Position numbers and translations under genes: made by a program. A model generated the notes under the pieces. That model ran no database searches and was not told the origin of the DNA. It was given only the letters and a program-made list of their open reading frames with translations. A stretch of DNA of 64,000 bases from an uncultured Candidatus Saccharibacteria bacterium. Lineage in GTDB: Bacteria > Patescibacteriota > Minisyncoccia > Phycocordibacterales > 2-02-FULL-43-11. Of this stretch, positions 2,540 to 54,236 are shown piece after piece (position 1 is the stretch's first letter; every line of letters starts with the position of its first letter). The stretch is taken from assembly GCA_964348785.1 (NCBI GenBank), contig CAYGDO010000001.1, forward strand, positions 21,724 through 85,723. Direction: 5' to 3'.

Positions 2540-2884
2540 TCAATTCCGTGCCATCTTGGGAGAACTCACACGAGGAGACACCACAACCGCCCCGGAAACC
2601 ATAGCAAGGTTGGAATGTTCTGCGACCATTGCCTCGATTTCTTGAAGCGTATAACACAACTTCCAACCAATGAGACCCCCAAGTAGCAACGCCCTAGAGG
2701 CCTCTAAAACCGCCCGAGGAATATTGCCATCCTCTGGGTAAGGAATAGAATATGCCCCACCTCGAACCAGCAATTCTTTGATGGGGCTGTCTTTCTTAAC
2801 CGGCCCCCACACTCCATAGCACCAAAAAACGACAGTACCACGGTGAACCTGCACCTTCTTAGCGCGTTTTCTTTTTGAGCTCAT
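2540..2884 (-). CDS. hypothetical small protein, locally GC-richer
   Basis: 114 aa ORF with AGGAT upstream of ATG; basic N-terminus; no family recognised. Confidence 0.35.
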   Translation of the reverse strand: MSSKRKRAKKVQVHRGTVVFWCYGVWGPVKKDSPIKELLVRGGAYSIPYPEDGNIPRAVLEASRALLLGGLIGWKLCYTLQEIEAMVAEHSNLAMVSGAVVVSPRVSSPKMARN

Positions 2885-3041
2885 TCTAACCTAAATCCTA
2901 CACACACATCCAAAAAAGACAAATATTAAATATGCTTGGGCAAAAAACACATCTATTTCAAACATATTTAAGCACATTAGTTAAATCTAACAAAAAAGGT
3001 CAAATTTATGCATTACCCCACGCTATTGAATTATAATAAAA

Positions 3042-5318
3042 ATGTTTTATAATTATCATCTTATGATTGGTTATCCAAAATCAAGCCAGCCTTGGATTGT
3101 CTACGTGTCCACTTTTCCCCCTCGCACCTGTGGTATAGCCACTTTTACTCAAGATCTAATGGATACATTTGATAATCTTTACGCACCAAAAGAAAAATCC
3201 AAAGTAATAGCTATGAATATTGATAAAAAATCAAATTTCAAATATGACAAAAACAGAGTAATTTTTAAAATAAACCAAAATGAAAAAGAGGAATACATAA
3301 AAACAGCGGAACAAATAAACAACCTTCAAAACGTAATGGTTGTTAATATTCAGCACGAATTTGGTATTTTTGGAGGTGAATATGGAGATTATATTATTGA
3401 TTTTATAAAAGAACTGTCAAAACCCATCGTCCTTACCTTACACACAGTCCTTCCGTCACCCAACGAAAAACTTAAAAAAAACGTTGAGGAATTAGGAAAA
3501 AATGTCGATGTAATCATAGTGATGACAGAAACTTCAAAAAAGATTCTATTAAAAGATTACACAATTGACGAAAATAAAATTAAAATAATTCCACACGGTA
3601 TTCACCCTGAACTATTTTCAGACGGTATAAAAGAAAAAGCTATTCTAGGGCTATCCAATAAAATTGTTTTATCTACATTCGGATTATTAAGCAAAGGCAA
3701 GGGTATTGAATACGGAATTGAAGCTCTACCTCAAATAGTTGAAAAATATCCCGATGTTGAATACCACATAATAGGCGCCACTCACCCCGTAGTAGTAAAG
3801 GAAGAAGGTGAAGTATACAGAGAATCTTTAATTGAAAAAGTAAAAAAACTAAAATTAGAAAAAAATGTATTTTTTCACAACAAATACTTAGATCTTTCTG
3901 AGTTACTCTGTTTTTTAAAAGCTACAGACATATATATGTCACTTCCTCTTGATCCCAACCAGGCAGTTTCAGGAACTCTTTCTTATGCATTAGGAACAGG
4001 TAGACCAGTTATCGCCACTTCGTTCGCACAAGCAAAAGAAGATGTTACCCCAGAAATCGGTATTCTAGTTGATTTTAAAAATCCAAAAGAAATCACGGAG
4101 GCACTCTTCAACCTTCTTGATAAACCTGAACAATGTAAAGAAATGGGTAAAAAAGCCTACTTTAGAACTCGAAGTAAAACTTGGCAAAATGCAGCTTTAT
4201 CATATATGAATGAATACATAAAACTTGCACCGAATTTGGCCAAAATTGAAAAAAATCTTCCACAAATTAAACTCGACCATATTATTGAATTAACAGATGA
4301 ATTTGGAATGATTCAGTTCGCCAAACTAACGAAGCCCGATACATCATCTGGTTACACCATAGATGATAATGCTCGCGCCCTTATTGCAATCACAAAGTGT
4401 TTCGAGCAACATAAAAGTGAAAAATTACTTGATTTGATAAAAATTTACCTAAATTTTATTGATTACGTAGCTCAATTTTTTGGAGAATTTTATAACTACG
4501 TAAATTATGATCGCAGTATCCCAATTGAAAAAAACCATACTGACAGTTTAGAAGATGCCCGAGCTAGAGCTCTATGTGCCCTATCTTACGTCGCCACATC
4601 TTCATCAATTCCAGAAAATCTTAAAGACAAAGCTTCAACCTTATTCAAATACAGTATGGAGACCTTTTTTCCAGAACACCCACGCTCTATCGCTTTTTTT
4701 ATAAAATCTTTAACAACTTGGTATTCAGTTGATTCATCAGAAAAAAATAAATCAAAAATAATTGAATTGTCAGACAAAATAATAACGATGTACAGAGAAA
4801 ATTCAAATCAAAACTGGCACTGGTTCAGTGACTCCTTAACGTATTCTAACGCCATCCTACCAGAAGCCTTAGCTCTGGCTTACAAAATAACACAAAAAGA
4901 AGAATTTCTAAAAATTTCTGAAGAAAGTATGGACTTTTTAATAAATTACAGTTTTGGTGAAAAATTATGTATGCCTATAGGTCAAAAAGGTTGGTTGCAA
5001 AAAGGGGGTGAAAAACAATTATATGATCAGCAACCAGAAGAGGTATCTACTTTAATAGAAGCACTGGTGACCTTATATAAAATTACAAAAAAAGAACGCT
5101 ATAAAGAATTATCAAGAAATGCATTTGATTGGTTTTTGGGACATAACACTCTACAACAAGTAGTCTATGACCAAACAACTGGGGGTTGTTACGATGGCGT
5201 AGGAAAAGAATATATCAACCTTAATCAAGGAGCGGAATCAACAGTCATGTACCTGTTGGCACGAATAGCAATAGAAAATATTTCAGAAAATATCTCCGAT
5301 TTATACGACCCCGCTTAA
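3042..5318 (+). CDS. glycosyltransferase family 4 (GT1-fold) protein with long C-terminal alpha-helical (glycoside-hydrolase-like) extension
   Basis: 758 aa; N-terminal half resembles Glycos_transf_1 (HIIGATHP... EXXXXXXE-type region GTGRPVIATSFAQAKEDV); C-terminal 350 aa of unknown function. Confidence 0.65.
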   Translation: MFYNYHLMIGYPKSSQPWIVYVSTFPPRTCGIATFTQDLMDTFDNLYAPKEKSKVIAMNIDKKSNFKYDKNRVIFKINQNEKEEYIKTAEQINNLQNVMVVNIQHEFGIFGGEYGDYIIDFIKELSKPIVLTLHTVLPSPNEKLKKNVEELGKNVDVIIVMTETSKKILLKDYTIDENKIKIIPHGIHPELFSDGIKEKAILGLSNKIVLSTFGLLSKGKGIEYGIEALPQIVEKYPDVEYHIIGATHPVVVKEEGEVYRESLIEKVKKLKLEKNVFFHNKYLDLSELLCFLKATDIYMSLPLDPNQAVSGTLSYALGTGRPVIATSFAQAKEDVTPEIGILVDFKNPKEITEALFNLLDKPEQCKEMGKKAYFRTRSKTWQNAALSYMNEYIKLAPNLAKIEKNLPQIKLDHIIELTDEFGMIQFAKLTKPDTSSGYTIDDNARALIAITKCFEQHKSEKLLDLIKIYLNFIDYVAQFFGEFYNYVNYDRSIPIEKNHTDSLEDARARALCALSYVATSSSIPENLKDKASTLFKYSMETFFPEHPRSIAFFIKSLTTWYSVDSSEKNKSKIIELSDKIITMYRENSNQNWHWFSDSLTYSNAILPEALALAYKITQKEEFLKISEESMDFLINYSFGEKLCMPIGQKGWLQKGGEKQLYDQQPEEVSTLIEALVTLYKITKKERYKELSRNAFDWFLGHNTLQQVVYDQTTGGCYDGVGKEYINLNQGAESTVMYLLARIAIENISENISDLYDPA

Positions 5319-5332
5319 AACACTATTAAAAA

Positions 5333-5980
5333 CTAGACTTCCACCTCTTTTAAGCCAGATATTATGGGCAAAATACTTTGATCGGTTACATCTTCAGGTT
5401 TCATAAAAGTCTTAGAAAATATTTCTTTCTCAATTCTTTTTAATGATTCAACCACCGTTTCAAAATCCTCATTACTATATTTTTCCAAAATTATTTTCCC
5501 ATATCTTTCTCGTAAATCTTTCATTCTTTGATCTAAAGAAACGACTCCGTGAGGCCCAACCCTCATATCAGAATATGAACAAATTTTCTGCTCCAAAGAT
5601 CCGTTTTTTTCTATCTCCGGTACATTACCAAAACCAATTTTTTCTATAATATTCAAAACTCTTTCTGGTAAATTAAGTTCTTTGGATATAGACATAGTGG
5701 CCAAGTGAACATCATCACCATATTTTTCAATAAAATCACTCTTAACTTTTTGCCAATACTCTAAACCCTCGGGTTGTACAAAATCGGGAAACTTACTTAA
5801 ATCTGATTTAATAATATTTCCCATATCATGAAAAAGGCAGGCCAAAACCAAATCCTTAGAATCTATTTTTGTGGAGAAACTACTGGATATTAAATCAGCA
5901 ACAGAGGCCACCCTAAAATGATGCTCTGCTAGACTAGGCGGAATTTTATAAGAAGAATATATATTTTGAATTTTGGACAT
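5333..5980 (-). CDS. HD-domain phosphohydrolase
   Basis: 215 aa; HHF...LFHDMGN motif of HD superfamily. Confidence 0.6.
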   Translation of the reverse strand: MSKIQNIYSSYKIPPSLAEHHFRVASVADLISSSFSTKIDSKDLVLACLFHDMGNIIKSDLSKFPDFVQPEGLEYWQKVKSDFIEKYGDDVHLATMSISKELNLPERVLNIIEKIGFGNVPEIEKNGSLEQKICSYSDMRVGPHGVVSLDQRMKDLRERYGKIILEKYSNEDFETVVESLKRIEKEIFSKTFMKPEDVTDQSILPIISGLKEVEV

Positions 5981-8305: not shown

Positions 8306-10024
8306 CTATTTCTTATAAAACAACTTGGCCAAACGTATCAAATCATAAGAATGTTGGCCATCTAAATATTCAAAAACCGGTTTCAATTTTTCCGTCCCAA
8401 TTTTATCAAACGCCAAATGAATTTCTTTAATTTCTAAAGCTTTCTTTTTGTCTTGAGGTATAACTTTCATTAAATCAGTATTATCAATTTGTTTTAAAGA
8501 TAAGAGGTGTTCCAAATGATCAACAACGGTTCCCTGCTTTATTCCTCTTAAAAGAGCGATCTCAGAAACACTTTTGCCTTGAAAAAGTAACTCCTTCGTC
8601 TCACCGTAAGTATCTCTTCCAACACTTGTACTTTTTTTATAAATTTTTTGTGATTTTCCTAAACTTAAATCAGTTTTCAGTTCTTCCTCAGTTTTAAATT
8701 TTCCTCCAAGTGCTTTTATGAAATTTTTATGAAATTCCAAAAGCTCTTCGGCGTTAATTGATTCAAATTTGACCCTAGCTTCCGCCGAAGCCAATTTAAA
8801 TTCCCTATCTTTCTCTAAAATATCAGGATGAACTTTTAAAGATTTTTCATTAAAACCTTCCAAAAATAAACCGGACAAACGACGCACCCGTGAAAGAGCC
8901 ACATAACCCTGACCGTATTCAAAAACATCTGATAAATTCATAACCGCTTCATCAAGCGACATTCCCTGACTCTTATGTATCGTTATAGCCCAAGCCAAAC
9001 GAAGTGGCGTCTGCATTATACGCGCTTTCACCTGGCCGTTTTCTTCAAGCAACCATTCCATTGGTTCTATTTCAATTTTTCTTCCTGATTTAGTTCGGAC
9101 AATCGGATTGCCCATCGTTTTTTCAAAATCAACAACCTCACCCAAAGTACCATTTACAAATCCTTTGGTGGGATTATTTTTTGTGCACATCACAATCGCA
9201 CCAACTTTCAATTCCAAATTTTCAGGTGACAAGCATCCCCTCTTTAAAGATTCCACAGGGCCTTCTTTACCCGAAGTGCCCATCACAAACATTTTCACCT
9301 TGCCATCTATCATTCCCAATCTTTCGTTGTTCAATCTATCAACATTTTCATTGTGAGAAAAAAGTCTAGTCATAGTATGAGTTTTGTCTTCATGTTTACC
9401 CAGTCTTTTTTTGAGAGAAATTCTATGATCATCATTAAAACTATTTTTCCTAATTGAAGAAAGCAAGGATAAATATTCTTTATCATCTTGTCTGTGTTGT
9501 TCAGATAAATAGCAGACAATCGGTTTTGCATCACGCCAAGTTCGTGAATTATATGAAAAGTTGGGCGACATCTCTCCGTTAGCCACAATTGGTGGCAACT
9601 GAAAAAAATCTCCAACAAAAACAACTTGCATACCCCCGAAGGCCTCCATCGGATTACCTCTAACATTTCTACATACAGCATCAGCCGATTCCATAGTTGA
9701 AGCATCAAGCATAGACACCTCATCAATTATCAAAACTTGAGTATTTTTTATACGTTTATATATATTAGATTTATCGGCAATAGTTTCCACTTCATATTTT
9801 GAAAGATTTTTCTTTGTGCCAATTCCAGACCATGAATGAATCGTCATACCGTGAATATGAGTTGAAGCAATGCCAGTTGAAGCTGTTATGGCTGGTTCAA
9901 TTCCAAAATTACGCAAATACTCAACATACGTTCTTATAGTATGAGATTTTCCACTTCCTGGCTCGCCTGTTAAAAAAACATTGGCGCCAGTTTTCAAAAT
10001 CTGCAAAGCAGTTTCCTGAGTCAT
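8306..10024 (-). CDS. PIF1/RecD-like AAA ATPase DNA helicase with C-terminal helix-turn-helix-like domain
   Basis: 572 aa; Walker A GEPGSGKSH, Walker B VLIIDEVSML, FVGDFFQLPPI motif typical of Pif1/RecD helicases. Confidence 0.75.
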   Translation of the reverse strand: MTQETALQILKTGANVFLTGEPGSGKSHTIRTYVEYLRNFGIEPAITASTGIASTHIHGMTIHSWSGIGTKKNLSKYEVETIADKSNIYKRIKNTQVLIIDEVSMLDASTMESADAVCRNVRGNPMEAFGGMQVVFVGDFFQLPPIVANGEMSPNFSYNSRTWRDAKPIVCYLSEQHRQDDKEYLSLLSSIRKNSFNDDHRISLKKRLGKHEDKTHTMTRLFSHNENVDRLNNERLGMIDGKVKMFVMGTSGKEGPVESLKRGCLSPENLELKVGAIVMCTKNNPTKGFVNGTLGEVVDFEKTMGNPIVRTKSGRKIEIEPMEWLLEENGQVKARIMQTPLRLAWAITIHKSQGMSLDEAVMNLSDVFEYGQGYVALSRVRRLSGLFLEGFNEKSLKVHPDILEKDREFKLASAEARVKFESINAEELLEFHKNFIKALGGKFKTEEELKTDLSLGKSQKIYKKSTSVGRDTYGETKELLFQGKSVSEIALLRGIKQGTVVDHLEHLLSLKQIDNTDLMKVIPQDKKKALEIKEIHLAFDKIGTEKLKPVFEYLDGQHSYDLIRLAKLFYKK

Positions 10025-10120
10025 TAAAACAGTTTACATTAAATGTGATACGCAAACCACAAAAAAACAACAACAAAACACATTACAGAGTACGTATGTA
10101 TAAAGTACCTGCGTAATGTT

Positions 10121-11107
10121 CTATTTTGCTTTGGCGATAAATTTTCTGTTTAAATAAACAGTCATGTAGCCAACACCAATAACCAAAAAACCAATTAGGA
10201 TAAGAGCAAGAGACCAATTTATTGAATCACGGAAAAATCTCGATGTCAGTTTGATAATATGCCCGACTAGAAAACCTGAGCTCAAAACAAGCATTATTCC
10301 GCTTCTCAAAAATACACTAGCGTAAAAAGCACCAAATAAAATAAGGATGAAAATAAAATCAAACGAGCCTCCAAAAGCAATTCCCGATCCTAAAACGGCC
10401 AGAGTCCCAAGCCCGTAAAAAATATTCTGAACAATTTTTCTCTCCTTGTCGCCGATAGACGAATAATCGGCCCAAAGACGCTTGAAAGCATAAGCCAAAA
10501 AGATATAAGAAAAACCAAGAAGCATAGTGGCCCACTTAACCAAATCACCATCAAAATCAGAAAAATTAAATATCTTTGAAAGCAAGGCGTAGTATGCCCA
10601 AGTTAAAAAACCGATAACGGAAACAAAAAGAATACTTTTCTTACTTATATACATAGCAACACCAAATATGATAGACAAAATGATTGCCGTGAAAAAATTA
10701 CTTTGCCAATTAAAACTAACTGACATTTCTTTGAGTAAAACAAAAGCACCTATCGGAGCAAGAATTACTGAAATGCCAAACATCACGTTGGACATAATAG
10801 AGTGCTCATTATCCCTTACCAAAAGACCTGCAACATAACAAACAAAAGCCACACCCAATGTTGATAATAACCTACCAACGGCACCGATATCGTTCCAATT
10901 TTGTGCAATCAACGTAATGACTCCAATTACAGCGATAATTCCACCTATAAGATAAAAAAGGTTTGTTAATTTTTTACCAAAAGAAACAGGCTCAAAATTA
11001 TCAGATTCTAAAATTTCATGATTTAAAAATCCAAGTAACTCCTCTCTGGAAACGTTTCCCCCTTGGAGTTCAGAGCTAATCAGAGAAAATAGTTGTTTTT
11101 TATCCAT
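10121..11107 (-). CDS. polytopic membrane protein, hypothetical
   Basis: 328 aa, about 8 hydrophobic helices. Confidence 0.5.
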   Translation of the reverse strand: MDKKQLFSLISSELQGGNVSREELLGFLNHEILESDNFEPVSFGKKLTNLFYLIGGIIAVIGVITLIAQNWNDIGAVGRLLSTLGVAFVCYVAGLLVRDNEHSIMSNVMFGISVILAPIGAFVLLKEMSVSFNWQSNFFTAIILSIIFGVAMYISKKSILFVSVIGFLTWAYYALLSKIFNFSDFDGDLVKWATMLLGFSYIFLAYAFKRLWADYSSIGDKERKIVQNIFYGLGTLAVLGSGIAFGGSFDFIFILILFGAFYASVFLRSGIMLVLSSGFLVGHIIKLTSRFFRDSINWSLALILIGFLVIGVGYMTVYLNRKFIAKAK

Positions 11108-11111
11108 AAAA

Positions 11112-11714
11112 TTATTTTATCCAACCAATAAGGTTGAAGTCGCCGTTATAATAATAAGAAGTATTTGATGTCGTTAGACCTTCAAGCCTTTTTTTAGCCT
11201 TTCCTTTAGAAATAAAGTAGCCTCGATTGCTATTGTCAGAACCAAATAGTTCAAAAATACCATAATTACCACCCTCATAAGTGACGTTGTAACCATCAGG
11301 TGATGACGGACCAGCATCAAACGTCATCTTCTTTGCCTCCTCAAAAGAAATTTTCTTTGAAGAACTGTTTTTAACATCATACACAAACAAATCTGGAGCT
11401 TCTTTCCTATTTTCAACCTTATCGTAACTGTTTAAAGGTATTGGTGACAAAACCAAATTTCCATCTTTTATATCGTATTTATTTTTATAGCCATAACTTA
11501 CATAACCATCTGCACTGTAAATAAAATTATAAGTTGGTTTTATTGAAAATGTTGGTAAAAAAACCACTAACAAAATTACTGCTAAAAAGACTATAGGTAA
11601 TGCTATAGCCACTATAATTGGCAAGTTTTTATTATTCATACTCTCAATTCTACACCCATTAGCCCCTCCTGCAAATGTAGACTCGCAGATGTTACAGATG
11701 GTGCCCATCTGCAA
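11112..11714 (-). CDS. membrane-anchored hypothetical protein
   Basis: 200 aa; single TM then soluble domain; true start may be internal MNNKN. Confidence 0.45.
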   Translation of the reverse strand: MQMGTICNICESTFAGGANGCRIESMNNKNLPIIVAIALPIVFLAVILLVVFLPTFSIKPTYNFIYSADGYVSYGYKNKYDIKDGNLVLSPIPLNSYDKVENRKEAPDLFVYDVKNSSSKKISFEEAKKMTFDAGPSSPDGYNVTYEGGNYGIFELFGSDNSNRGYFISKGKAKKRLEGLTTSNTSYYYNGDFNLIGWIK

Positions 11715-11720
11715 TTGATA

Positions 11721-12350
11721 TTATTTTTCACCAAACATCATCTTTAAGGTAGGCGGTAAATCTTCGGGTCTATCAATTATTTTATAAGGATTACCAAGTA
11801 AAAGAGTTTCTCTATTATGAAAACCCCAACTTACAGCCAACGATTTTACACCTGTTTCGGTGGCTTCTTTTACATCTCCCAAAGTATCAGTCACAAAAAC
11901 GCAATCGCGCGGACCAATATTATATTTAGCAAAAACCATTTTAATCTTTTCTACCTTACTTGTATGAACATCATTCCCCATAATTTCTGTAAAATGTTTT
12001 GCCAAATCAAATTTCACCAAAATTTCCAATAAAGGAGCAGAAATTGTAGAAGAAATGACAATGAGAATATAATCCTTAGAAATTTTTTCTATCGCCTGTT
12101 TCATGCCAGGAAAAACTTTAACCTGAGAACGCATTCTAGGAACATATTCATCAAAAAAATTTATATCATGACGACATTTATCAGAATGTTTTTCATCAAA
12201 CTTTTCCCAATCATTTATATTGCCTTCAAATCGCTTTTTGTGACCCTCAGCGGTGATATGTGGACACATCATTTGAGCAACACCAAGCGCAATGTTAAAA
12301 GAATCAACAATTACCCCATCAAAATCAAAAAGTATAAAAGATTTTTTCAT
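11721..12350 (-). CDS. HAD-superfamily hydrolase
   Basis: 209 aa; motif I FDFDGVIVDS, C-terminal VTDTLGD. Confidence 0.7.
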   Translation of the reverse strand: MKKSFILFDFDGVIVDSFNIALGVAQMMCPHITAEGHKKRFEGNINDWEKFDEKHSDKCRHDINFFDEYVPRMRSQVKVFPGMKQAIEKISKDYILIVISSTISAPLLEILVKFDLAKHFTEIMGNDVHTSKVEKIKMVFAKYNIGPRDCVFVTDTLGDVKEATETGVKSLAVSWGFHNRETLLLGNPYKIIDRPEDLPPTLKMMFGEK

Positions 12351-12466: not shown

Positions 12467-12495
12467 ATTGACACTATTAAATTGACGTGGTAATT
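12467..12495 (+). promoter_or_regulatory. sigma70-like promoter TTGACA-N17-TAATTT driving GC-rich cassette gene 1 (contains internal TTGAC direct repeat)
   Basis: cattgacactattaaattgacgtggtaattta; near-identical copy at 13287-13315. Confidence 0.55.
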
Positions 12496-12541
12496 TACTC
12501 TCTAACTTGCCCAACGCGGGCGAGAGTACACCAAGAATCAA

Positions 12542-13159
12542 ATGAGCACACAGGCAAAAACCCCGGAAACCCCGACTCCCAACGCCAAACCCGAACCGCC
12601 GAAGGCCTCCGTGCCTCCGCCGCTACCGAAGCCGTCACTCGAGCAGGTCTTCACGACCCGCCTCGACGCGATCTTCGCAGGCCAGCGGACCCCCGAAGCG
12701 GAGCTGTTCGAGCCCCTCGAAAGGCTCGACCCCAGAAAGCACGAGATCATCGGGATCGTCACCGACCAGAAGAGCCGGGAGCTCTTCTCCCTGGCCCGGC
12801 GACTGGAGGAAGAGCAGAAAGGTGTCCCTCTGGCCCGCAAGCCCGGACAAATCCCCCAACACGAGACCGATGTCGCGACGATCAACAATCAGCGCAAAAC
12901 GGTCTTGAGCCTCTTCTGGCATCATGCCAAAGCAACGGGCATCAAGGCGGGAACGCCCACCGACATGTCGATTGGGATCGTGCAGGGATGGAAACTGGTC
13001 ATTGCTCCCAGTGAGGGAGAAGTCCTCGGTGGACTCGTCGAAATCATGGGCATGGGGCTTCCTCCCGGGCTCCTCGACCACCTCCGTCGCGGTCAAGACG
13101 GTGATCCCGGCGACGACCGCCGGCCCAGCAGGGGCTTCGGTAGCCCCGAAGGCGACTAA
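12542..13159 (+). CDS. GC-rich Pro-rich hypothetical protein, paralogue 1 of tandem cassette
   Basis: 205 aa; shares RLDAIFAGQRTPEAELFEP / DQKSRELFSLARRLEEE block with paralogue 2 (RLAAIFTGATTPKEDLFEP / DQRSRELYSLAQLLKEE); flanked by promoter and terminator on + strand. Confidence 0.55.
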   Translation: MSTQAKTPETPTPNAKPEPPKASVPPPLPKPSLEQVFTTRLDAIFAGQRTPEAELFEPLERLDPRKHEIIGIVTDQKSRELFSLARRLEEEQKGVPLARKPGQIPQHETDVATINNQRKTVLSLFWHHAKATGIKAGTPTDMSIGIVQGWKLVIAPSEGEVLGGLVEIMGMGLPPGLLDHLRRGQDGDPGDDRRPSRGFGSPEGD

Positions 13160-13188
13160 ACCCGCCTCGCTCACCTCGACCCCCTCAC

Positions 13189-13222
13189 GCGCAGCGTCCT
13201 CCCTGGACACTGCGCTTTTTTT
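13189..13222 (+). terminator. rho-independent terminator (GCGCAGCGTCC-TCCC-TGGACACTGCGC + T7)
   Basis: hairpin plus U-run; near-identical copy at 14147-14180. Confidence 0.7.
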
Positions 13223-13286
13223 ATTCAAAATTTTAAATACCCTTCAAAATATTTTTTACTCATTATAATCTCCATATTTTCCATCA

Positions 13287-13315
13287 TTGACACTATCAAA
13301 TTGACGTGGTAATTT
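13287..13315 (+). promoter_or_regulatory. second copy of cassette promoter TTGACA-N17-TAATTT
   Basis: catcattgacactatcaaattgacgtggtaattta. Confidence 0.55.
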
Positions 13316-13376
13316 ATTTTCACTTGGCCAATGGTGGTCAAGAGTACACACAAGAACCAAATCATCAGGCAAAACC

Positions 13377-14114
13377 ATGAATCCTCAACACGAGACACCG
13401 CCCGACAGCGCCAGTGCCGTCCCGAACGAAGTGCCCCCGCCGACCGAAGGCGAGCAACAACAGGGACTTCCTCCTGTGATCGGCCCGGAACTCACCGCCG
13501 CACCGCCCGAACCCCAGGTCGCCGCTGAAGGAAACGATGCACCCCCGACCACGAAACCGGCGCCGGAGACTCAGCCGGCACCCTCGCTGGCGTGGGTCTT
13601 CATGAATCGCCTGGCCGCGATCTTCACGGGAGCAACCACCCCGAAAGAGGACCTGTTCGAGCCGATCCAGGACTACGGCTTCGACCGAATCGACGGACTT
13701 GAATTCGCCGGCGTCATCCACGACCAGCGGAGCCGGGAGCTCTACTCCCTCGCACAGCTCCTCAAGGAAGAACGGGGCTCCCTCCGTCAACCCCGCAAGT
13801 CGAAAGAGGTCAAAGACCACGACCTGCGGAGTGCGATTCTCCAGGAGCAAGAGAAACTCGCCATGGCACTCTTCGTCCAAGCGGTCAAAGCCGAACTGCC
13901 GAAGGCCGACGTTAACGACCTCACTATCGCTGTGTTCGAGGACTGGCGAGTCGGCGTCGCAAGGCAAGACAATCAGGATGGTGGTTTCCAGTCCCGTCTC
14001 GCCGAGGCCATCGGCCTTCCGCCGGAGCTCATCGCCCATCTCAGTCGCCGTTCGCGCGACGAAGACCCCCACGCTCGCGAAGAGCGACTCTACCCCGGTG
14101 GCGGACGCGGTTGA
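13377..14114 (+). CDS. GC-rich Pro-rich hypothetical protein, paralogue 2 of tandem cassette
   Basis: 245 aa; paralogous to 12542-13159 at protein level with synonymous-type nucleotide divergence. Confidence 0.55.
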   Translation: MNPQHETPPDSASAVPNEVPPPTEGEQQQGLPPVIGPELTAAPPEPQVAAEGNDAPPTTKPAPETQPAPSLAWVFMNRLAAIFTGATTPKEDLFEPIQDYGFDRIDGLEFAGVIHDQRSRELYSLAQLLKEERGSLRQPRKSKEVKDHDLRSAILQEQEKLAMALFVQAVKAELPKADVNDLTIAVFEDWRVGVARQDNQDGGFQSRLAEAIGLPPELIAHLSRRSRDEDPHAREERLYPGGGRG

Positions 14115-14146
14115 GTGATTCTCTCCAGTCCGAATCGACCTCTCGC

Positions 14147-14180
14147 GCGCAGCGTCCTCCCTGGACACTGCGCTTTTTTT
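14147..14180 (+). terminator. rho-independent terminator, copy 2
   Basis: gcgcagcgtcctccctggacactgcgcttttttt. Confidence 0.7.
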
Positions 14181-14212
14181 ATTCAAAATTTTTTATGCTC
14201 TTAACTAAAAAA

Positions 14213-18916: not shown

Positions 18917-19147
18917 GTTCCTTACCATACATCTCCCAAACTGCCGATTCCCGGCGGTTTTTTTATTTACCCGCCAAACTTTATTACCGAACAATATTTA
19001 ATTTCTAATGTAATGCGCCTTACTTCTTTTATTAAAAAATCTCAAACATCTCAATTTCCATAAAGTTAGGCGGGTGAATCCCTAAAAAATTATAAAAACA
19101 ACGTACTTTAAATCCTTAAAGTACGTTGTCGACACTTCGCCATTCAA

Positions 19148-22245: not shown

Positions 22246-22251
22246 GCAGGT

Positions 22252-35556: not shown

Positions 35557-35581
35557 ACACTTCTAAACTATCAGAATAATA

Positions 35582-35616: not shown

Positions 35617-35634
35617 TAAAGAACACATCGAGAC

Positions 35635-39860: not shown

Positions 39861-39872
39861 TATCTAAAAAAT

Positions 39873-40259: not shown

Positions 40260-40294
40260 ATCTAATATTATAACTTTTTTAAAAAACTAAATCA

Positions 40295-41101
40295 CTACCT
40301 CTTTATAAAAGCTCTATCTGAAAACCTCAAATCTATGTATTTAAAAAGTGGGTTGCCTTTTTCCATCTCTTGTTTTATCAAATCTAACTTATTTATAGTT
40401 TCATCTAAAATAAAATCTTCTGACAACTTGATTTCTGAATCAGATTTCAAAGAAATAACATAAAAACCCTCATAAACTGCTATCCGGTAAACTTTCCAAT
40501 CAAATTTTTCTAGAGCATTAGCCAAATCAACCACCTTTTTTACATCACCAAAAAAATTATCGCCGATTTTTGGTGATGTTGTGCTGACCTTGTCATCAAT
40601 TAAAAATATTTCAGTTTCAAAATCATTTTTGGAAAATTTTTTAAAAGCAAACCCTAGATCATCCACAATTAAACACTGCTCAGGTAAATCCTTTTGGCTA
40701 TAACACCAAACAGCAAATCCACTTCTCTCTGAAATTTTCAAAGTTAAATTCTTTAAACCGTCAAAATTAGCATCCAAATCTTTAACAATCGGATCTAGCG
40801 CATAAACCTGACCAAGAAAATTTTTCTTATCAAAAAAAATAAAGTTGTCGGTATCGATTAGGCCAAATAATTTTTGACTCTTTACGTTATCAAAAATTTT
40901 ATTAAGAGAATCTGTCGATATTTCTTTATTACCTACAACAGAAAAATTTTTAATAGAAATATAGTCTGAAGAGAAAAAAACATTAAGGCCAAAAAAAACA
41001 CAGCCAATTAAGATTAAAGATAAAGAAAACAAGAAAAAATACTTGGTTCTACGCTTTTTTTGCAATTTAGGTGAAGAAAGACATGCTTTTCGCAATTTCA
41101 T
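40295..41101 (-). CDS. membrane-anchored protein, possibly FtsQ/POTRA-like
   Basis: 268 aa, N-terminal TM, IKNFSVVGNKEIS region resembles FtsQ POTRA. Confidence 0.35.
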   Translation of the reverse strand: MKLRKACLSSPKLQKKRRTKYFFLFSLSLILIGCVFFGLNVFFSSDYISIKNFSVVGNKEISTDSLNKIFDNVKSQKLFGLIDTDNFIFFDKKNFLGQVYALDPIVKDLDANFDGLKNLTLKISERSGFAVWCYSQKDLPEQCLIVDDLGFAFKKFSKNDFETEIFLIDDKVSTTSPKIGDNFFGDVKKVVDLANALEKFDWKVYRIAVYEGFYVISLKSDSEIKLSEDFILDETINKLDLIKQEMEKGNPLFKYIDLRFSDRAFIKR

Positions 41102-41112
41102 CTAAATTAGAA

Positions 41113-46134: not shown

Positions 46135-46833
46135 ATGAACGAACAGACAACCTTCGGTGGACTCAACCTCAACAACCTGGACCGCACGCCGATCTGGTTG
46201 AGAGAAATTATCGGGCACCGCGATTTTGCTCAAGCCCTAGCATGGGCTGAGGCCCAAAAGAACCGGAGCGATTCCTACCACAAATGGGGATGGCGAGTTG
46301 CGCTGCTCGGGATGATTTTGACACTTCTCATCTTAGGGTTCTTTGGCCTAGCACTAAAGCATAAGTTCGAGATTCCCCCGCAAAGCGTGATGACCTTGTT
46401 TTTCTTACCGGTCATCATAATCTCTGTTGGGCTATACCTGCTCTATACATCCAGTGAGCATAAGCGCAAGGCTAACGAAGCCTTGAAGACAGAATTTTTC
46501 AAGATCACTCCGTTCATTGACCTGCTCACAGAGCTAGGGCTCGGACACATTTTGGTGACAGAATCCCACCACGGAGTGGGAAAGGAAGTCGAGATAAAAT
46601 TGATTGAATTCGCAGAGAGAGTCCTCAGTCTGGAAATTGAGTTCTCAAAGATCAGGTCAAGAGGTACCGGAATGGAGGGTTTTACCGATTTAATGCAGTT
46701 TGGTGATGGAATTCGCCAATTCAGGGGACTGTTAAACGGACTATGTGGTCATTTTGTACCCTGGAAGATGCCCTTCCAAATCGGACAGATTTTCAACAAA
46801 GCGGAAAACAGGATCCCCAAACCCGCCGCCTAA
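46135..46833 (+). CDS. membrane protein, hypothetical (moderately GC-rich)
   Basis: 232 aa, 2-3 TM segments, terminator at about 46850-46885. Confidence 0.45.
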   Translation: MNEQTTFGGLNLNNLDRTPIWLREIIGHRDFAQALAWAEAQKNRSDSYHKWGWRVALLGMILTLLILGFFGLALKHKFEIPPQSVMTLFFLPVIIISVGLYLLYTSSEHKRKANEALKTEFFKITPFIDLLTELGLGHILVTESHHGVGKEVEIKLIEFAERVLSLEIEFSKIRSRGTGMEGFTDLMQFGDGIRQFRGLLNGLCGHFVPWKMPFQIGQIFNKAENRIPKPAA

Positions 46834-46962
46834 TCCGCCGCCCCAGCAAGCTTTCACACCCCGTCCTCCATGGATGGGGCTTTTTTATATTCAAATATAC
46901 ACCGCGGGTAATTCTTTGTTATTCTCCTTGCACATATTTTAAATGAGCTATAACCTATAGTT

Positions 46963-48495
46963 ATGGCCACCTTTGAAGAAATAACAGCTCCAATAAAAGA
47001 TTTGTCTGAAAAGGATAAAAAACTTATTGAAAAAGCCTACAACTTTGCCGAAATTGCCCATAAAGAACAAAAAAGATTTTCTGGCGACCCGTATTTTTTG
47101 CATCTAACAGAAACGGCGAAAATTTTAGCGGAAACCAATATGGGAGCTTTGACGATTTCTGCTGGTCTTCTACACGACTCCATTGAAGATGCCAATGTAA
47201 CTCCTGAAACTATAGAAAGAGAGTTTGGCAAAGAAATAAAATTTATGGTTGAAGGCGTGACCAAACTTGGCAAACTTCGATATCGAGGAGCAGAAAGATA
47301 TGTTGAAAGCCTTCGAAAACTTTTTGTAGCAATGTCCCAAGATCTACGAGTTTTAATTATTAAACTTTGCGACAGACTACACAATGTAAGAACGCTCCAG
47401 TATGTCAGGCCGGAAAAACAAAGGCGAATCGCTCTTGAAACTCTTGAAATATATGCCCCTCTTGCCTACAGATTGGGAATCAGAAAACTCCACAGAGAAT
47501 TGGAAGACTTGTCTTTCCCCTACGTCTACCCTGATGAATACAAAAAAGTAAAAAATCTTTTAAAAAAGAAAAGCAAAGAAAATGCAAAAAACCTAGAACA
47601 TTTCCGCAAATCAATAATGAAATGTCTGGCCAAAGCTAATATAACAAGAGTTCACATTGATTACAGAATAAAAGGTCTGTACAGTTTATATAAAAAATTG
47701 GAAAGAAAAGAATGGGACATTGATGTCATCTACGACATTATGGCCACACGTGTGGTGGTAAAAGATGTTGAAGATTGTTACAAAGCCCTGGGTTTGATAC
47801 ACGGACACTGGAGGCCTCTACCGGGACGTATTAAAGACTATATTGCTTTTCCAAAACCAAACGGCTATCAGAGTCTTCACACCACAGTCTTCACAGGAGA
47901 TGGAAGTATTACAGAAATCCAAATCAGAACGGAAGAAATGCATAGAGAATCCGAGTACGGTATCGCCTCGCATTTTGGCTACAAAGAAAGTTTTGACCAA
48001 AAAAGCTTAAGAAGTAAAAACTCTTTCTCTTGGATAACACAATTTATGCCTTTATTTAATGCATCGGAAAAATCTGGAGAATTTGCCAAAAGCGGCATTA
48101 TAAATGCCGACATACCCACCTGGCTCAAAGAATTAGCCAAAGTAGAAACGATGGCGGAAGAACACGATGAATTCATAAAAGATATAAAATCGGACTTTTT
48201 CAAAACCAGAGTTTTTGTTTTTACACCAAAAGGAGATGTCGTTGATTTACCATCAGAGGCAAATCCTATAGATTTTGCTTATGCTATACATTCAAACATT
48301 GGTGATCATATGTCCGGAGTAAAAATAAACGGCAAACTGGTAGCCATTGATACACCCTTAAAAAATGGCGATATTGTTGAAATTGTTGCAAAAGAAAATT
48401 CTAAGCCAACGACACGTTGGGTTGAAATGGCAAAAACCAACCTAGCCAAAAGACACATAAGAAGTCTATTAAGTAAGAAAAATAATAGAAAATAA
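46963..48495 (+). CDS. rel: RelA/SpoT-family (p)ppGpp synthetase/hydrolase (short, HD + synthetase + TGS)
   Basis: 510 aa; HD motif HLTETAKIL...HDSIED, synthetase RVHIDYRIKGLYSLYKK...DIMATRVVV, TGS-like C-terminus VFVFTPKGDVVDLP. Confidence 0.8.
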   Translation: MATFEEITAPIKDLSEKDKKLIEKAYNFAEIAHKEQKRFSGDPYFLHLTETAKILAETNMGALTISAGLLHDSIEDANVTPETIEREFGKEIKFMVEGVTKLGKLRYRGAERYVESLRKLFVAMSQDLRVLIIKLCDRLHNVRTLQYVRPEKQRRIALETLEIYAPLAYRLGIRKLHRELEDLSFPYVYPDEYKKVKNLLKKKSKENAKNLEHFRKSIMKCLAKANITRVHIDYRIKGLYSLYKKLERKEWDIDVIYDIMATRVVVKDVEDCYKALGLIHGHWRPLPGRIKDYIAFPKPNGYQSLHTTVFTGDGSITEIQIRTEEMHRESEYGIASHFGYKESFDQKSLRSKNSFSWITQFMPLFNASEKSGEFAKSGIINADIPTWLKELAKVETMAEEHDEFIKDIKSDFFKTRVFVFTPKGDVVDLPSEANPIDFAYAIHSNIGDHMSGVKINGKLVAIDTPLKNGDIVEIVAKENSKPTTRWVEMAKTNLAKRHIRSLLSKKNNRK

Positions 48496-48506: not shown

Positions 48507-48731
48507 TCAAAACCATCTTGTCCAATAGTGGTTAGTTAGAAAAAACCCCAACCACAACGCCGTCATCCAATAAATAACACGGTACATCTTGTTGGCAATT
48601 CTAGCCCTCTCTACATTTCGTGAGGTGCCGTTGATCAGAGCTAGAATTCTAGTCCTTGAGACCATGCGACGTCCGGTCATAAAAGCCACTACTGGCACGA
48701 TCACAAACCCAAACACGTCGAGAACATTCAT
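48507..48731 (-). CDS. small membrane protein, hypothetical
   Basis: 74 aa hydrophobic ORF. Confidence 0.3.
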   Translation of the reverse strand: MNVLDVFGFVIVPVVAFMTGRRMVSRTRILALINGTSRNVERARIANKMYRVIYWMTALWLGFFLTNHYWTRWF

Positions 48732-48808
48732 ATTGGTATTTCGTGTAAATCGTTAAAAACAATTGTAATTAAAGAAAACAAAAAAATCAATAAAAAAGAC
48801 GCCCCCAA

Positions 48809-49039
48809 TTAGGACGCCCGACCGATAGGAAAAAGAAAGGCAAGCGTGATCAAAAAATACAGCCCCGCCAAAATTACCGTAAAAAACCACGCGACCGCAG
48901 TCGCACAGCCGGCGCTTACCCGAAGCCAGGTATCGCTTGAATATCGAGTCTGCCGTCTCATGAAAAATGCTAAACAGTGAACACTCGCGCAAAGAATGCC
49001 CGGGCCCACAACAAAAGCGAAAAATTGCAATGCTGTCAT
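48809..49039 (-). CDS. small membrane protein, hypothetical
   Basis: 76 aa, two hydrophobic helices; overlapping alternative frame 48753-48992 less convincing. Confidence 0.3.
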   Translation of the reverse strand: MTALQFFAFVVGPGILCASVHCLAFFMRRQTRYSSDTWLRVSAGCATAVAWFFTVILAGLYFLITLAFLFPIGRAS

Positions 49040-50186: not shown

Positions 50187-50672
50187 TCAAATCTCACCGA
50201 AAAGTCGGTGGACAGAGATAACCCGTTCATAGTAAAACCTTGCATCTCTAGGCCACCGACGCATCATCTGACATTCTTCAAGGTAGGCCGTCCTAATAAT
50301 AAAAAAGTAGTAGGCTCCCGCGATGAGGAGTGCAAGGGCAGAATGATCGTAAGCAAGAAACACCAAATCAGCGACGATGTACGATGCGTAGGCGGGATGG
50401 GCGACAAACCGAAACGGTCCGTCCACTTTTAGCCTGAGGGCCCCCTGAACCATTTGTCGTGATAGGGAAAACAACACCCAACCGACAAACAAGATCCAAA
50501 GGACGATACCGACCTTGAGGAAAACGATGTGTTCCTGGGGCGCCTTCGCCCACAGAAAACGGTACGAAAACCAGTACCGGACGACCGCCAAGGCCATCAT
50601 CAGATACCAGTTGAAGTTGGAACGAAAAGACAAAGAGCTTGTATTCATGACTCGCGAGAAATTAACACTCAA
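50187..50672 (-). CDS. isoprenylcysteine carboxyl methyltransferase (ICMT/PEMT)-family membrane methyltransferase
   Basis: 161 aa; GPFRFVAHPAYASYIV motif. Confidence 0.6.
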   Translation of the reverse strand: MSVNFSRVMNTSSLSFRSNFNWYLMMALAVVRYWFSYRFLWAKAPQEHIVFLKVGIVLWILFVGWVLFSLSRQMVQGALRLKVDGPFRFVAHPAYASYIVADLVFLAYDHSALALLIAGAYYFFIIRTAYLEECQMMRRWPRDARFYYERVISVHRLFGEI

Positions 50673-50743
50673 TTATTGATATGTCAAACATTTATACCCG
50701 GTCTTGAATAATCAAAAATTTTAGAATAAACTATCCCCTACTT

Positions 50744-50827
50744 GCCGCGGTGGCGGAATTGGCAGACGCACGGGACTCAAAATCCCGCGATCGCGAGGTC
50801 ATGAGGGTTCAACTCCCTCCCGCGGCA
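50744..50827 (+). tRNA. tRNA-Leu (anticodon CAA)
   Basis: GCCGCGG acceptor, anticodon stem CGGGA/TCCCG with loop CTCAAAA, long variable arm, T arm GAGGGTTCAACTCCCTC, discriminator A. Confidence 0.8.
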
Positions 50828-50940
50828 TCAATCCTTACCTAGCTTTCAAAGAAAGCGTCAGGTGGGAGTTGAAGCCTTGTTGAGAAATTTTATAAGCGTA
50901 GCGAAATAAAATATCCAACAAGGGGACTGAAACTGTAAGT

Positions 50941-50960
50941 TTCAACTCCCTCCCGCGGCA
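50941..50960 (+). repeat. 20-nt direct copy of tRNA-Leu 3' end (TTCAACTCCCTCCCGCGGCA), about 110 bp downstream of the tRNA
   Basis: identical to 50808-50827. Confidence 0.8.
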
Positions 50961-51080
50961 CAAAACAAAGAAGTCTGATGTAACACATCAGCGACTATTA
51001 TTTTGTAGTACGCAAATTTGAGTTAAAAGACGGAGGCATTTTTATGATATTATAAAAACAATATAATTTTATAAAAATCT

Positions 51081-53379: not shown

Positions 53380-53438
53380 AATTATGATTTTATCTTGTAA
53401 ATATAAATTAAATAAATTTCTTTAAATTCTATCACCTG

Positions 53439-53450
53439 CTTCTAACGGGA
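53439..53450 (+). repeat. CTTCTAACGGGA motif copy (upstream of GC-rich histidine phosphatase)
   Basis: same motif at 54395-54407 (+), 63738-63746 (+, partial), 54295-54307 (-), 34512-34523 (-), degenerate 61642-61653. Confidence 0.6.
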
Positions 53451-53594
53451 CAAGTCAAAAAATCTAATAATTTAGACCTTAAATTTAACATAATTTTAGA
53501 CCTTTTCTGAATTTGACTATTTACCACAAAAATGTTATTGTCCTTTTTGGATTCTTTTCCAACAACAGGCAAACCTCAACCTCAATCCTGAATA

Positions 53595-54236
53595 ATGAAC
53601 ACCACACCCAAAATCTGGGAATTGGTCAGTGTCCTTATCCTCGCCCGGCACGGCAAAGCCGTCGCCGCCGAAGGTCGCCCAGACGCCGAACGCAAGCTCA
53701 ACGAACTCGGGATCGCCCAGGCCAACGCCCTCGGCTTCTCCGTTCAAAAGCTCGAGATCGACATCGTTCTGTCATCCCCGCTCAAGCGGGTGGTGAGCAC
53801 CATGCGCACCGCGACCAACGACACTATCCCGATCCATCCGGTCGCCGAACTCACCTGCTCGGATGATCCGATTGACCCGATCCAGATCATGTGGGGCAAG
53901 CTCGGCAATGTCCCCATCTCTCGATACTTCGCTGAGGCCGCCGGCGAATATCTCAAGGTCTGGGGGCAAACAGCCCTCGGTGCCATCATCCGCGAACTCC
54001 AAAATGGCGGACACGACCAGAAGGTTCTCGTCGGCGGACATGCCGTTCTCCAGAATGCCCTCTTATGGGCAATCTCCCAGTCAGTCTCCGAGGACTGCTG
54101 GGCGGCGGCAGGAATGGACGAGGTCAATGAAATAGCCTGCCAAAACCTTCTCGGAGAAGGCGAGGCCTTCGTCCTGAGATTCCCATCACATGAGGCCGGT
54201 GTCACCACATGTGAACACCTCCGCCCCATGGCGTAA
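53595..54236 (+). CDS. histidine phosphatase superfamily protein (SixA/PGM-like), GC-rich
   Basis: 213 aa; LILARHGKA (RHG), SSPLKRVVSTM, VGGHA motifs; TTGACT-N17-TATTGT promoter-like upstream. Confidence 0.6.
   Translation: MNTTPKIWELVSVLILARHGKAVAAEGRPDAERKLNELGIAQANALGFSVQKLEIDIVLSSPLKRVVSTMRTATNDTIPIHPVAELTCSDDPIDPIQIMWGKLGNVPISRYFAEAAGEYLKVWGQTALGAIIRELQNGGHDQKVLVGGHAVLQNALLWAISQSVSEDCWAAAGMDEVNEIACQNLLGEGEAFVLRFPSHEAGVTTCEHLRPMA

Follow-up and report, generated by a model that had tools for sequence, protein, structure and literature searches.

The window analysed here is a stretch of 64,000 nucleotides from an uncultured Candidatus Saccharibacteria bacterium, taken from the 222,561-bp contig k141_1278861 of the ENA assembly ERZ27247837, a metagenome assembled with MEGAHIT. 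Its backbone consists of AT-rich genes, including serS, topA, dnaX, a relA/spoT-like gene, clpB, dus and parB, and into this backbone sharply bounded GC-rich units are set, most of them single genes. These units, called islands in the following and lettered A to K and M, are the subject of this report. The GC content of the whole window is 37%. In a 400-bp profile, a floor of 0.27-0.40 is broken by sharp blocks of 0.45-0.63; the background lies at 0.33-0.34. With a threshold of 0.12 above the median GC, exceeded over at least 250 bp, islands occupy 12.5% of the window. Two further GC peaks are the genes for tRNA-Gln and tRNA-Leu.

A first-pass annotation of the same DNA, made from the letters alone, had listed nine intervals with GC-rich codons among AT-rich housekeeping genes (serS, topA, dnaX and a relA-like gene). 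The segmentation recovers all nine intervals as GC-rich against the background, and the identities given to the flanking genes are borne out. The list itself needed amendment: the interval 18644-20548 comprises two units, E and D, which converge on an AT-rich spacer, and four mini-units at about 29745-30615, island M and two small open reading frames (ORFs) at 48507-49039 had been missed.

In base composition, islands and backbone form two classes that do not overlap. The 47 ORFs used as the backbone reference have a GC content of 0.339 (standard deviation 0.029, maximum 0.44) and a GC content at third codon positions (GC3) of 0.266 (standard deviation 0.045), whereas the 11 island ORFs contrasted with them have 0.48-0.64 and 0.41-0.75, respectively. 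Expressed as z-scores against the backbone, the islands lie at 4.8-10.4 for GC and at 3.3-10.7 for GC3, which is the atypical composition looked for in acquired islands. At four-fold degenerate sites the GC3 of the islands is 0.37-0.79 compared with 0.28 in the backbone, and the combined share of Gly, Ala, Arg and Pro is 0.24-0.36 compared with 0.19; the bias therefore affects synonymous positions as well as the choice of amino acids. The codon dialect is distinctive in B, C, K and G, where CTC accounts for 60% of the Leu codons (5% in the backbone) and TTA falls from 33% to 1%, where AGA gives way to CGN for Arg and AAA to AAG for Lys, and where the frequency of C at third positions (C3) is 0.34-0.50 instead of 0.11. 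Untranslated parts of the islands are included, the 5' untranslated regions (UTRs) having a GC content of 0.32-0.55 and the 3' UTRs one of 0.54-0.73, against 0.27 in ordinary intergenic DNA.

Two simple causes of such a bias were ruled out. Translational selection as the sole cause fails because G at third positions (G3), Lys-AAG, Arg-CGN and amino-acid usage are shifted as well, and transcription-coupled deamination fails because B, C and K, in which GC is highest, have coding strands that are C-rich and not C-poor.

Island K has been followed into related genomes. It encodes a member of the histidine phosphatase superfamily: the Pfam family His_Phos_1 (PF00300) is matched with an E-value of 1.7e-12 and 47.9 bits against a cut-off of 21.7, and the motif LARHGKA, which contains the catalytic RHG of the branch-1 histidine phosphatases, is conserved in all orthologues. 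There are 15 homologues in all (related loci are designated by L numbers). One with 56% identity was found twice from the same genome, as L097 (GCA_020049755.1) and as L098 (Logan assembly of SRR11088468), and one with 60% identity, L099, comes from SRR27197517, so that L097/L098 and L099 stem from independent runs and assemblies. In these genomes the K orthologue again forms a single sharp island in DNA of 0.334 GC, with a GC content of 0.59 and a GC3 of 0.71 in L097/L098 and with 0.54 and 0.63 in L099. The first-pass annotation had named closest homologues in related AT-rich genomes with the same GC bias as the result that would tell against its proposal of acquisition from a high-GC partner, and for K this is the result obtained.

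The gene neighbourhood is shared too. The array of PEP-utilizers paralogues next to which K lies in the window also accompanies it in L097 and L099, and L099 has exactly the gene order of the window (M10 peptidase - small ORF - K - PEP-utilizer). A homologue with 40% identity in L100, from a genome of 0.46 GC, is again placed beside a PEP-utilizers array, and its GC3 of 0.61, compared with 0.39-0.57, is the highest of its locus. K and the array are adjacent in all four genomes examined, which suggests that they may be functionally paired. A PEP-utilizers mobile (phospho-histidine) domain is encoded by seven paralogous genes of the window, of which six form a tandem series (24866-26347 and 54441-63722; repeat families D1-D3). 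A second histidine phosphatase gene of the window (18006-18548, minus strand; Pfam E-value 2e-29) is AT-rich, with a GC content of 0.32, and thus has a composition opposite to that of K.

In the comparison with L097 and L099, protein identity is 55-63% for K and 60-84% for its neighbours. At four-fold sites of conserved residues, third-position identity is 0.34-0.59 for K and 0.28-0.49 for the neighbours, where 0.32-0.42 and 0.29-0.33, respectively, would be expected for independent sequences. Because the observed values are close to the random expectation, synonymous sites are near saturation in K as well as in its neighbours. GC3 at these same sites remains 0.71-0.82 for K, compared with 0.27-0.35 for its neighbours. 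Many of the synonymous differences between K copies are swaps between C and G, and the orthologues use the same CTC- and C3-rich codon dialect. The order of relatedness among the K copies matches that of the neighbour genes, and the window and L099 agree to about 90% in the promoter and leader of K. Judged from these comparisons, K is vertically inherited and has stayed GC-rich despite synonymous turnover; a composition that persists at saturation is not the decaying scar of a recent transfer.

Island G provides a second and weaker case. Its protein has a predicted signal peptide and beta-sandwich domains, for which only generic Ig/Fn3-like matches were obtained, and the AlphaFold2 model is of moderate confidence (predicted local distance difference test, pLDDT, 76). 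The closest relative of the window's dus gene lies on L017, a contig of 3 kb, and is 66% identical by tblastn and 70% in a pairwise alignment. This dus gene has a GC content of about 0.38 and is flanked by GC-rich ORFs, with 0.55 on one side and 0.58 on the other, the latter being a member of the G family that stands directly downstream of dus, in the same position as G, and is 28-31% identical to it. G therefore probably persists as a GC-rich island as well, and the result that the first-pass annotation had named as telling against its proposal is obtained for G too.

A scan of genome contigs with the ClpB protein of the window found only relatives of 32-35% identity, and the window is therefore without a close reference genome. 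A metagenome scan with the Dus protein gave 80 related loci, in which dus is 54-67% identical and the locus GC ranges from 0.30 to 0.59. The order parB-relA-topA-dprA-serS-(x268, x128, clpB)-dus-dnaX is kept in about 30-40 related loci, and it is in the gaps of this syntenic backbone that islands I, H, G and J and the mini-units sit, in agreement with the earlier description of the islands as discrete units embedded in an AT-rich genome. The gap between dus and dnaX, which measures 12-2315 bp and has a GC content near background in 53 of 54 loci, extends over 4952 bp in the window and contains H, G, an AT-rich PG-binding gene and the four mini-units. The gap between clpB and dus, 100-2000 bp in relatives, measures 1806 bp and contains I, and the one between topA and relA, 20-440 bp in most loci, measures 1001 bp and contains J. 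Finally, relA and parB are neighbours in most relatives, whereas two small membrane-protein ORFs lie between them in the window.

By the same island definition, 39 of 41 related loci of at least 8 kb have an island density of at most 2% (the two others 4.3% and 7.5%), and the low-density loci include seven AT-rich ones of 0.30-0.36 GC. With 12.5% in the window, the islands are therefore lineage-specific additions of unusual density. In comparison with about 40 more distant relatives, absence from the syntenic site holds for I, H, G and J; it fails for K, which is present in L097, L099 and L100, and for G, which has its family member in L017.

Two of the islands could be checked against other assemblies. 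Logan assemblies of ERR3094292 and ERR3094302, produced with a different assembler, match the segments 35243-41367 and 31747-33956 at 100% identity. Each segment runs from an AT-rich flank through an island (I and G, respectively) into an AT-rich flank, so that both junctions are covered. The first-pass annotation had recommended that chimerism be checked at the junctions, and because these contigs are identical across those of I and G, it is excluded there.

The predicted transcripts of the two classes differ as well. By their motifs, island units are laid out as an AT-rich promoter of the sigma-70 type, a leader of 40-190 nt, a GC-rich coding sequence (CDS) and, at the end, a GC-rich hairpin with a T run behind it. 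Most leaders are without a Shine-Dalgarno site, and many of them are CA-rich. All island units end in an intrinsic terminator of their own, as had been claimed for what were described as mostly single genes. In the backbone, a TATAAT-like hexamer ends 4-12 nt 5' of the start codon in 21 of 47 genes, the distance at which the histogram peaks, and 5 of the 47 have a Shine-Dalgarno-like motif. Examples of genes with such a box near the start are 27703-28074, 28578-29618, 30682-32316, 39873-40259 and 46963-48495. Because the -10-like boxes end so close to the start codons, the backbone mRNAs appear to be largely leaderless or near-leaderless. A proximal -10 box is found in none of the 12 island genes surveyed; the nearest one lies 16-200 nt upstream, and at least 56 nt upstream in 10 of the 12.

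When folded and compared with shuffled sequences, island transcripts gave z-scores of -3.5, -4.1 and -2.7 and two backbone genes -1.3 and -1.4, a weak contrast, which is biased in that the island RNAs include their terminators and for which only 20 shuffles were used for the long RNAs. Rfam matched only the two tRNAs over the whole window and gave no credible match between 29.6 and 37.3 kb at a relaxed threshold. The protein-coding islands are not of the structured non-coding RNA kind, their families having homologues and predicted folds. The coordinates and properties of all GC-rich units are collected in Table 1.

Table 1. GC-rich units of the window (positions of the 64,000-nucleotide stretch).
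Unit	Position	Strand	Product or content	GC	GC3	Transcript features and remarks
Island A	2540-2884	-	114-aa ORF	0.50	0.49	terminator ~2505-2535
Island B unit	12467-13223	+	CDS 12542-13159, 205 aa	0.63	0.75	
Island C unit	13286-14181	+	CDS 13377-14114, 245 aa	0.64	0.72	
Island E	18644-18916	+	90-aa ORF	0.49	0.49	Shine-Dalgarno site AAGGAG; terminator ~18945-18975
Island D	19148-20548	-	nitronate monooxygenase family, 466 aa	0.50	0.41	Shine-Dalgarno site; own terminator
Island F	21559-22245	+	228-aa ORF	0.48	0.48	first listed as 21547-22245; GC hairpin terminator 22250-22285
Four mini-units	29745-30615	-	~150-250 nt each	0.48		own hairpin terminators, including 30423-30393 and 30192-30163
Island G unit	32411-33680	-	CDS 32457-33587, 376 aa	0.57	0.64	promoter; ~90-nt leader; terminator 32411-32437
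Island H unit	34062-34533	-	GC-rich segment 34080-34477	0.60		~420-nt transcript; terminator 34062-34087
Island I unit	35590-37242	-	CDS 35635-37014, 459 aa	0.53	0.57	promoter TTGACA-16-TATGAT (37242-37215); leader ~190 nt; terminator 35590-35617
Island J	46135-46833	+	two-transmembrane protein, 232 aa	0.48	0.58	~100-nt leader; terminator ~46870-46895
Two small membrane-protein ORFs	48507-48731; 48809-49039	-	74 aa; 76 aa	0.48-0.51		GC patches, moderately raised; between relA and parB
Island M	50187-50648	-	ICMT-like membrane protein, 153 aa	0.50	0.59	adjoins tRNA-Leu(CAA)
Island K unit	53513-54292	+	CDS 53595-54236, 213 aa; histidine phosphatase superfamily	0.60	0.72	promoter TTGACT-17-TATTGT; CA-rich ~55-nt leader; terminator ~54268-54292

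The islands encode a mixture of enzymes and secreted or membrane proteins, much as the first reading of the sequence had proposed: K and D are enzymes, G is predicted to be secreted and J and M are membrane proteins. The genes are real, as indicated by the Pfam match of K, the homologues of D and the families of C, G and I, with AlphaFold2 models for I and G. For the other islands little was matched. Island A is without a Pfam, NCBIfam, PHROG or PADLOC match and finds only itself among 1.84 billion representative proteins, and E and F gave no family match in scans of Pfam, NCBIfam, PHROGs and PADLOC. J has only a weak match to SLATT_4 (E-value 0.01) and M a weak Pfam match to ICMT (E-value 6e-4). 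The scans of the island proteins against PHROGs and PADLOC gave no significant matches, tblastn searches with K in a plasmid collection and with C, J and G in phage collections found nothing, and a scan of IMG/VR for the family of island I was negative.

Island D belongs to the nitronate monooxygenase (NMO) family. A direct Pfam scan gave no match at E < 0.01, only a weak one to FabK, and the matches of the family itself are flagged as faint; the 120 best homologues, with 49-61% identity, are nitronate monooxygenases; more than 100 homologues are full-length, and most of these carry a precomputed PF03060 assignment. Where a taxon name is given, it is nearly always one of the Patescibacteria (Paceibacterota, Nomura-, Yonath- and Moranbacteria). 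Together with the synteny to about 40 metagenomic loci, these labels indicate that the window comes from a member of the Patescibacteria. Gene and flank GC are 0.52 and 0.46 in the homologous locus L007, 0.43 and 0.34 in L011, and 0.53 and 0.38 in L012. The last of these (10001-12014; GCA_964349945.1) is on another Patescibacteria-type contig from the same sample, with 0.38 GC, where the NMO gene and an adjacent gene of 159 aa form an island of 0.53-0.57 GC with CTC-rich Leu codons like those of the window's islands.

The family of C has about 35 representative homologues with 28-48% identity, and its protein consists of a proline-rich N-terminus followed by a conserved domain. The family of I has about 45 representatives and no Pfam family; its AlphaFold2 model (pLDDT 89) has BshC and class I lysyl-tRNA synthetase as the nearest solved folds, and I may represent an uncharacterised ligase family. 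In the leader of I (37015-37207, minus strand), a hairpin at 37090-37109 resembles a terminator, and upstream of it lies a segment that can pair with the hairpin (CCCACAAGTTTGAGGG against CCCTCAAACGGGGG). No Rfam family matches this leader, which may act as an attenuator or riboregulator.

The contigs that carry the best homologues of K, C, G and I have a GC content of 0.33-0.52. For I the contig has 0.44, for C 0.52 (L015) and for G about 0.50, and in these three the genes are only mildly elevated. The contigs with the homologues of I and K resemble the window in gene content (PIF1, CYTH and the PEP-utilizers array). The best identity to a protein other than itself is 61% for D, 60% for K, 48% for the C family, 41% for I and 35% for G. 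With at most 61% identity, and with the matches of K in AT-rich relatives, no close donor of matching composition was found.

Island H is mostly non-coding. The interval 34140-34450 of the first-pass list does lie in the GC-rich segment of H; its 110-aa ORF, however, is most likely not coding, and the segment most likely encodes only a hydrophobic peptide of 39 aa (34241-34360, minus strand). The H transcript folds with a z-score of -2.7. For the four mini-units, either small RNAs or mini-proteins are possible products. In the first of them a -10 box immediately precedes a candidate ORF for a basic protein of 50 aa (29773-29925). The second contains an internal repeat, GGCAAAGTCAC, and folds with a z-score of -3.65 against shuffles. 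It is the only one of the four that folds better than shuffled sequences, which speaks against structured RNAs as an explanation for the mini-units as a group.

We consider the islands to be old acquisitions whose GC-rich state is held by an active force, and we would put the probability of this reading at about one half. Most of the islands would have been acquired horizontally long ago, from GC-richer genomes that belonged largely to other Patescibacteria, and the force would hold them at a compositional equilibrium apart from their neighbours. For the traced genes, the dialect is kept in orthologues while synonymous sites are near saturation, which argues for an equilibrium different from that of the neighbours. 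Our first choice for the force is selection on the transcript or its translation, the stable, structured and leadered mRNAs forming a separately handled expression class; it is favoured because the bias covers the UTRs, because the mRNA architecture is distinct and because the island transcripts fold better. The second choice is GC-biased gene conversion at frequently recombining accessory loci.

Several points weigh against this reading. It is drawn from 64 kb of one genome, and persistence is seen for two islands only, namely for K in three or four genomes and for G. The case of G consists of one 3-kb contig with 28-31% identity, and independent insertions at a hot spot are possible. A, E, F, J, M and H were not traced in relatives and may be ordinary, fairly recent transfers. 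The mild elevation of the homologues of C, G and I in genomes of 0.44-0.52 GC fits a simple transfer from donor to recipient, and the four-fold GC3 of D is only 0.37, its bias lying mostly in amino-acid usage. The leaderless and leadered classes were assigned from promoter motifs only, and the folding contrast carries the bias described above. In addition, a GC3 near 0.8 against an AT-biased background would need strong selection or conversion per site (4Nes of about 2-3 by our own estimate), which is unusual for small-genome symbionts.

The most credible alternative is ordinary horizontal gene transfer (HGT), that is, independent and fairly recent gains of single genes from assorted GC-richer donors, including Patescibacteria of the same community, which have not yet ameliorated and whose GC levels reflect donors and ages. 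Such gains would agree with the variation of four-fold GC3 between the islands (0.37-0.79), with the position of the checked islands in backbone gaps and their absence from about 40 relatives, and with the contigs of 0.44-0.52 GC on which homologues of C, G and I are found. Since related Patescibacteria range from 0.30 to 0.59 GC, GC-rich donors exist within the group; a contig from the same sample (L012/L013) carries a GC-rich NMO island, and the lack of any homologue of A among the 1.84 billion representatives fits as well. However, K and its neighbours have co-diverged to near saturation, and the GC3 of K stays at 0.7-0.8 in three AT-rich genomes, with a conserved promoter and leader and with a tree order equal to that of the neighbours. 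In L017 a gene of the G family, at the corresponding site, is GC-rich too. Moreover, no homologue above 61% identity was found for any island, so that no recent donor is visible, and no mobility genes were seen in the window. As a general account of the islands we regard recent transfer as possible but rather unlikely; for A, E, F, J, M and H it is the best reading, and for C, G and I it is possible.

A more far-reaching form of the reading in which the islands are held GC-rich is that of a genome with two dialects, in which leaderless and AT-rich housekeeping genes would stand beside a conserved accessory set, made up of surface proteins, small peptides and enzymes such as the phosphatase associated with the PEP-utilizers, that is kept GC-rich, leadered and hairpin-capped by selection. 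This form is doubtful, and we put it forward only tentatively.

Exchange of cassettes is a further alternative, and in our judgement an improbable one. GC-rich cassettes would be swapped in repeatedly from a wider pool, either through homology arms formed by promoter-leader and terminator or through a 24-nt recombination site, and would thereby stay both GC-rich and divergent. Support for arms of this kind comes from B and C, which are tandem paralogues with 38% amino-acid identity. The promoter of B, ATTGACACTATTAAATTGACGTGGTAATTTA, is identical to that of C over 31 of 31 nt, the leader (about 40 nt in B, with a 5' hairpin) is conserved to about 85%, and the terminator, which in B reads GCGCAGCGTCCTCCCTGGACACTGCGC and continues into a T run, is identical over 47 of 47 nt. 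The flanks at 12467-12541 and 13286-13376 and at 13181-13244 and 14139-14202 are far better conserved than the coding regions. The leader hairpin shows compensatory changes and is followed by GTRCACACAA, and hairpin and motif occur also at the C family gene of L015 (1510-1608). Regulatory constraint together with local gene conversion between tandem copies would, however, conserve such flanks equally. In a similar way, G and its counterpart in L017 share only 28-31% identity at the same site, next to dus genes of 66-70%, and the promoter and leader of K are about 90% conserved though synonymous sites are saturated; against exchange at K, its order of divergence is that of the neighbours, suggesting vertical descent.

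A candidate for the recombination site is the 24-nt motif CCGTGTCCYRCTTCTAACGGGGTT, which occurs at H (34510-34533, minus strand) and at K (54386-54409, plus strand), with two exact matches to the degenerate 24-mer against none expected. Short copies, GCTTCTAACGGG, are found at 53439-53450 (plus strand) and 54295-54306 (minus strand), where they are inverted and bracket K. Only H and K carry the motif CTTCTAACGGGG, and the 12-mer by itself does not exceed chance (5 occurrences against 2.6 expected). The copy at H overlaps the -35 box (TTGACA at 34511). The core of the 24-nt motif, CCCG-CTTCTAA-CGGG, resembles a tRNA anticodon stem-loop. It is this restriction to two islands, together with the absence of the motif beside the K orthologues in L097 and L099, the lack of common flanking sequence at the other islands and the lack of an integrase, transposase or recombinase in Pfam scans of the window, that speaks against exchange at such a site. 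A promoter or terminator motif common to all islands was likewise ruled out, as only B and C share one. The first-pass suggestion that the islands are cargo genes inserted by a common mechanism is weakly supported, in that the units share an architecture, whereas neither an integrase or transposase nor a common repeat was found and the motif is limited to H and K.

Signatures of mobility are accordingly reduced to hints, namely the inverted motif copies at K and the position of M beside a tRNA-Leu gene with a repeated 3' end. The last ~21 nt of this tRNA-Leu(CAA) gene (50743-50829), TTCAACTCCCTCCCGCGGCA, are repeated about 115 bp downstream at 50940-50962, in a manner that resembles the att-site scar of an integrative element. 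In addition, a 27-nt palindrome, TTTTACAAAGGTCGAACCTTTGTAAAA, is present in exact form at two intergenic sites (21029-21055 and 24422-24448) and partially at a third (23164-23190); it probably represents either a small repeat element or a bidirectional terminator common to these sites.

That the genes were donated to an episymbiont by a high-GC host or partner, for example an actinobacterium, was the origin first proposed, and it is highly improbable. The GC content of B, C and K (0.60-0.64) does lie within the range of high-GC bacteria, and dprA, a competence-associated gene, is present in the window. Nevertheless, nearly all of the best matches of D that bear a name come from Patescibacteria, K has its closest homologues in AT-rich relatives with the same gene array, the best contigs for C, G and I have 0.44-0.52 GC and none of them is labelled actinobacterial, and neither the plasmid collection (searched with K) nor the phage collections gave matches. 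In high-GC Actinobacteria, Leu codons are expected to be dominated by CTG; in the islands they are dominated by CTC.

The probability of an artefact, in which chimeric assembly or binning fused foreign GC-rich fragments onto an AT-rich contig, is negligible, for although the source is a MEGAHIT metagenome contig, the contigs of the second assembler reproduce the junctions of I and G at 100% identity, the island edges fall on promoters and terminators, and the K island is found again in independent assemblies of related genomes.

The islands can be compared with several known systems. In the model of Lawrence and Ochman, acquired genes of atypical composition are said to ameliorate. The islands are like such islets in their deviant GC, codon and amino-acid usage, in their absence from most relatives and in their position between backbone genes. 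However, K and probably G keep their deviance at synonymous saturation, which is the opposite of amelioration, and the islands are single genes, not multi-gene islands, have no mobility genes and deviate towards high GC within an AT-rich genome, whereas the deviation usually goes the other way. Klein, Misulovin and Eddy reportedly used GC-rich islands in 2002 to mark structured RNA genes in AT-rich genomes. Both tRNAs of the window form the same kind of sharp GC peak, and H and the mini-units may be RNAs, but most islands of the window are protein-coding and none matches Rfam.

Médigue et al. are said to have distinguished, in 1991, normal, highly expressed and foreign codon classes within one genome. 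Two separate codon dialects in one genome are found here also; unlike those classes, the GC3 of the islands reaches 0.75, G3, Lys-AAG and amino acids shift too, and the dialect is kept in orthologues. GC-biased conversion in recombining bacterial genes, reportedly described by Lassalle et al. in 2015 with effects of a few percent of GC3, could raise the GC of recombining accessory loci, untranslated parts included, but the shift from 0.27 to 0.75 in the window is far larger. Integron cassettes, finally, are likewise single-gene units, many of unassigned function, and the shared ends of B and C recall them. In contrast to such cassettes, the units of the window are dispersed and have promoter-like regions and intrinsic terminators of their own, end repeats are limited to B and C, and there is no integrase, IntI, attI or shared attC-like repeat. 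A literature search found no description of a maintained GC-rich gene class of this kind.

Atypical composition is routinely read as a sign of recent transfer and is expected to fade. K contradicts this expectation, for its GC3 is still 0.7-0.8 in three genomes with a GC content of 0.33. Since K keeps this GC3 while its synonymous sites turn over like those of its neighbours, a force that acts gene by gene would be required, be it biased conversion or a selection that acts on GC or on properties of the RNA. This bears on the question why bacterial GC content departs from mutational equilibrium, and also on how far composition-based calls of HGT can be trusted in genomes of the candidate phyla radiation (CPR). 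If most islands are plain transfers after all, the donors would be other Patescibacteria and not a high-GC host.

The link between composition and transcript architecture, leadered in the islands and leaderless in the backbone, provides a testable lead on the control of expression in organisms that cannot as yet be cultured by themselves. If the genome does have two dialects, composition would mark a separately stabilised or translated class of mRNAs, for example long-lived messages or a programme for a growth state or for attachment to a host, and adjacent genes with a GC3 of 0.27 and 0.8 would constitute a natural experiment on the determinants of GC content in bacteria.

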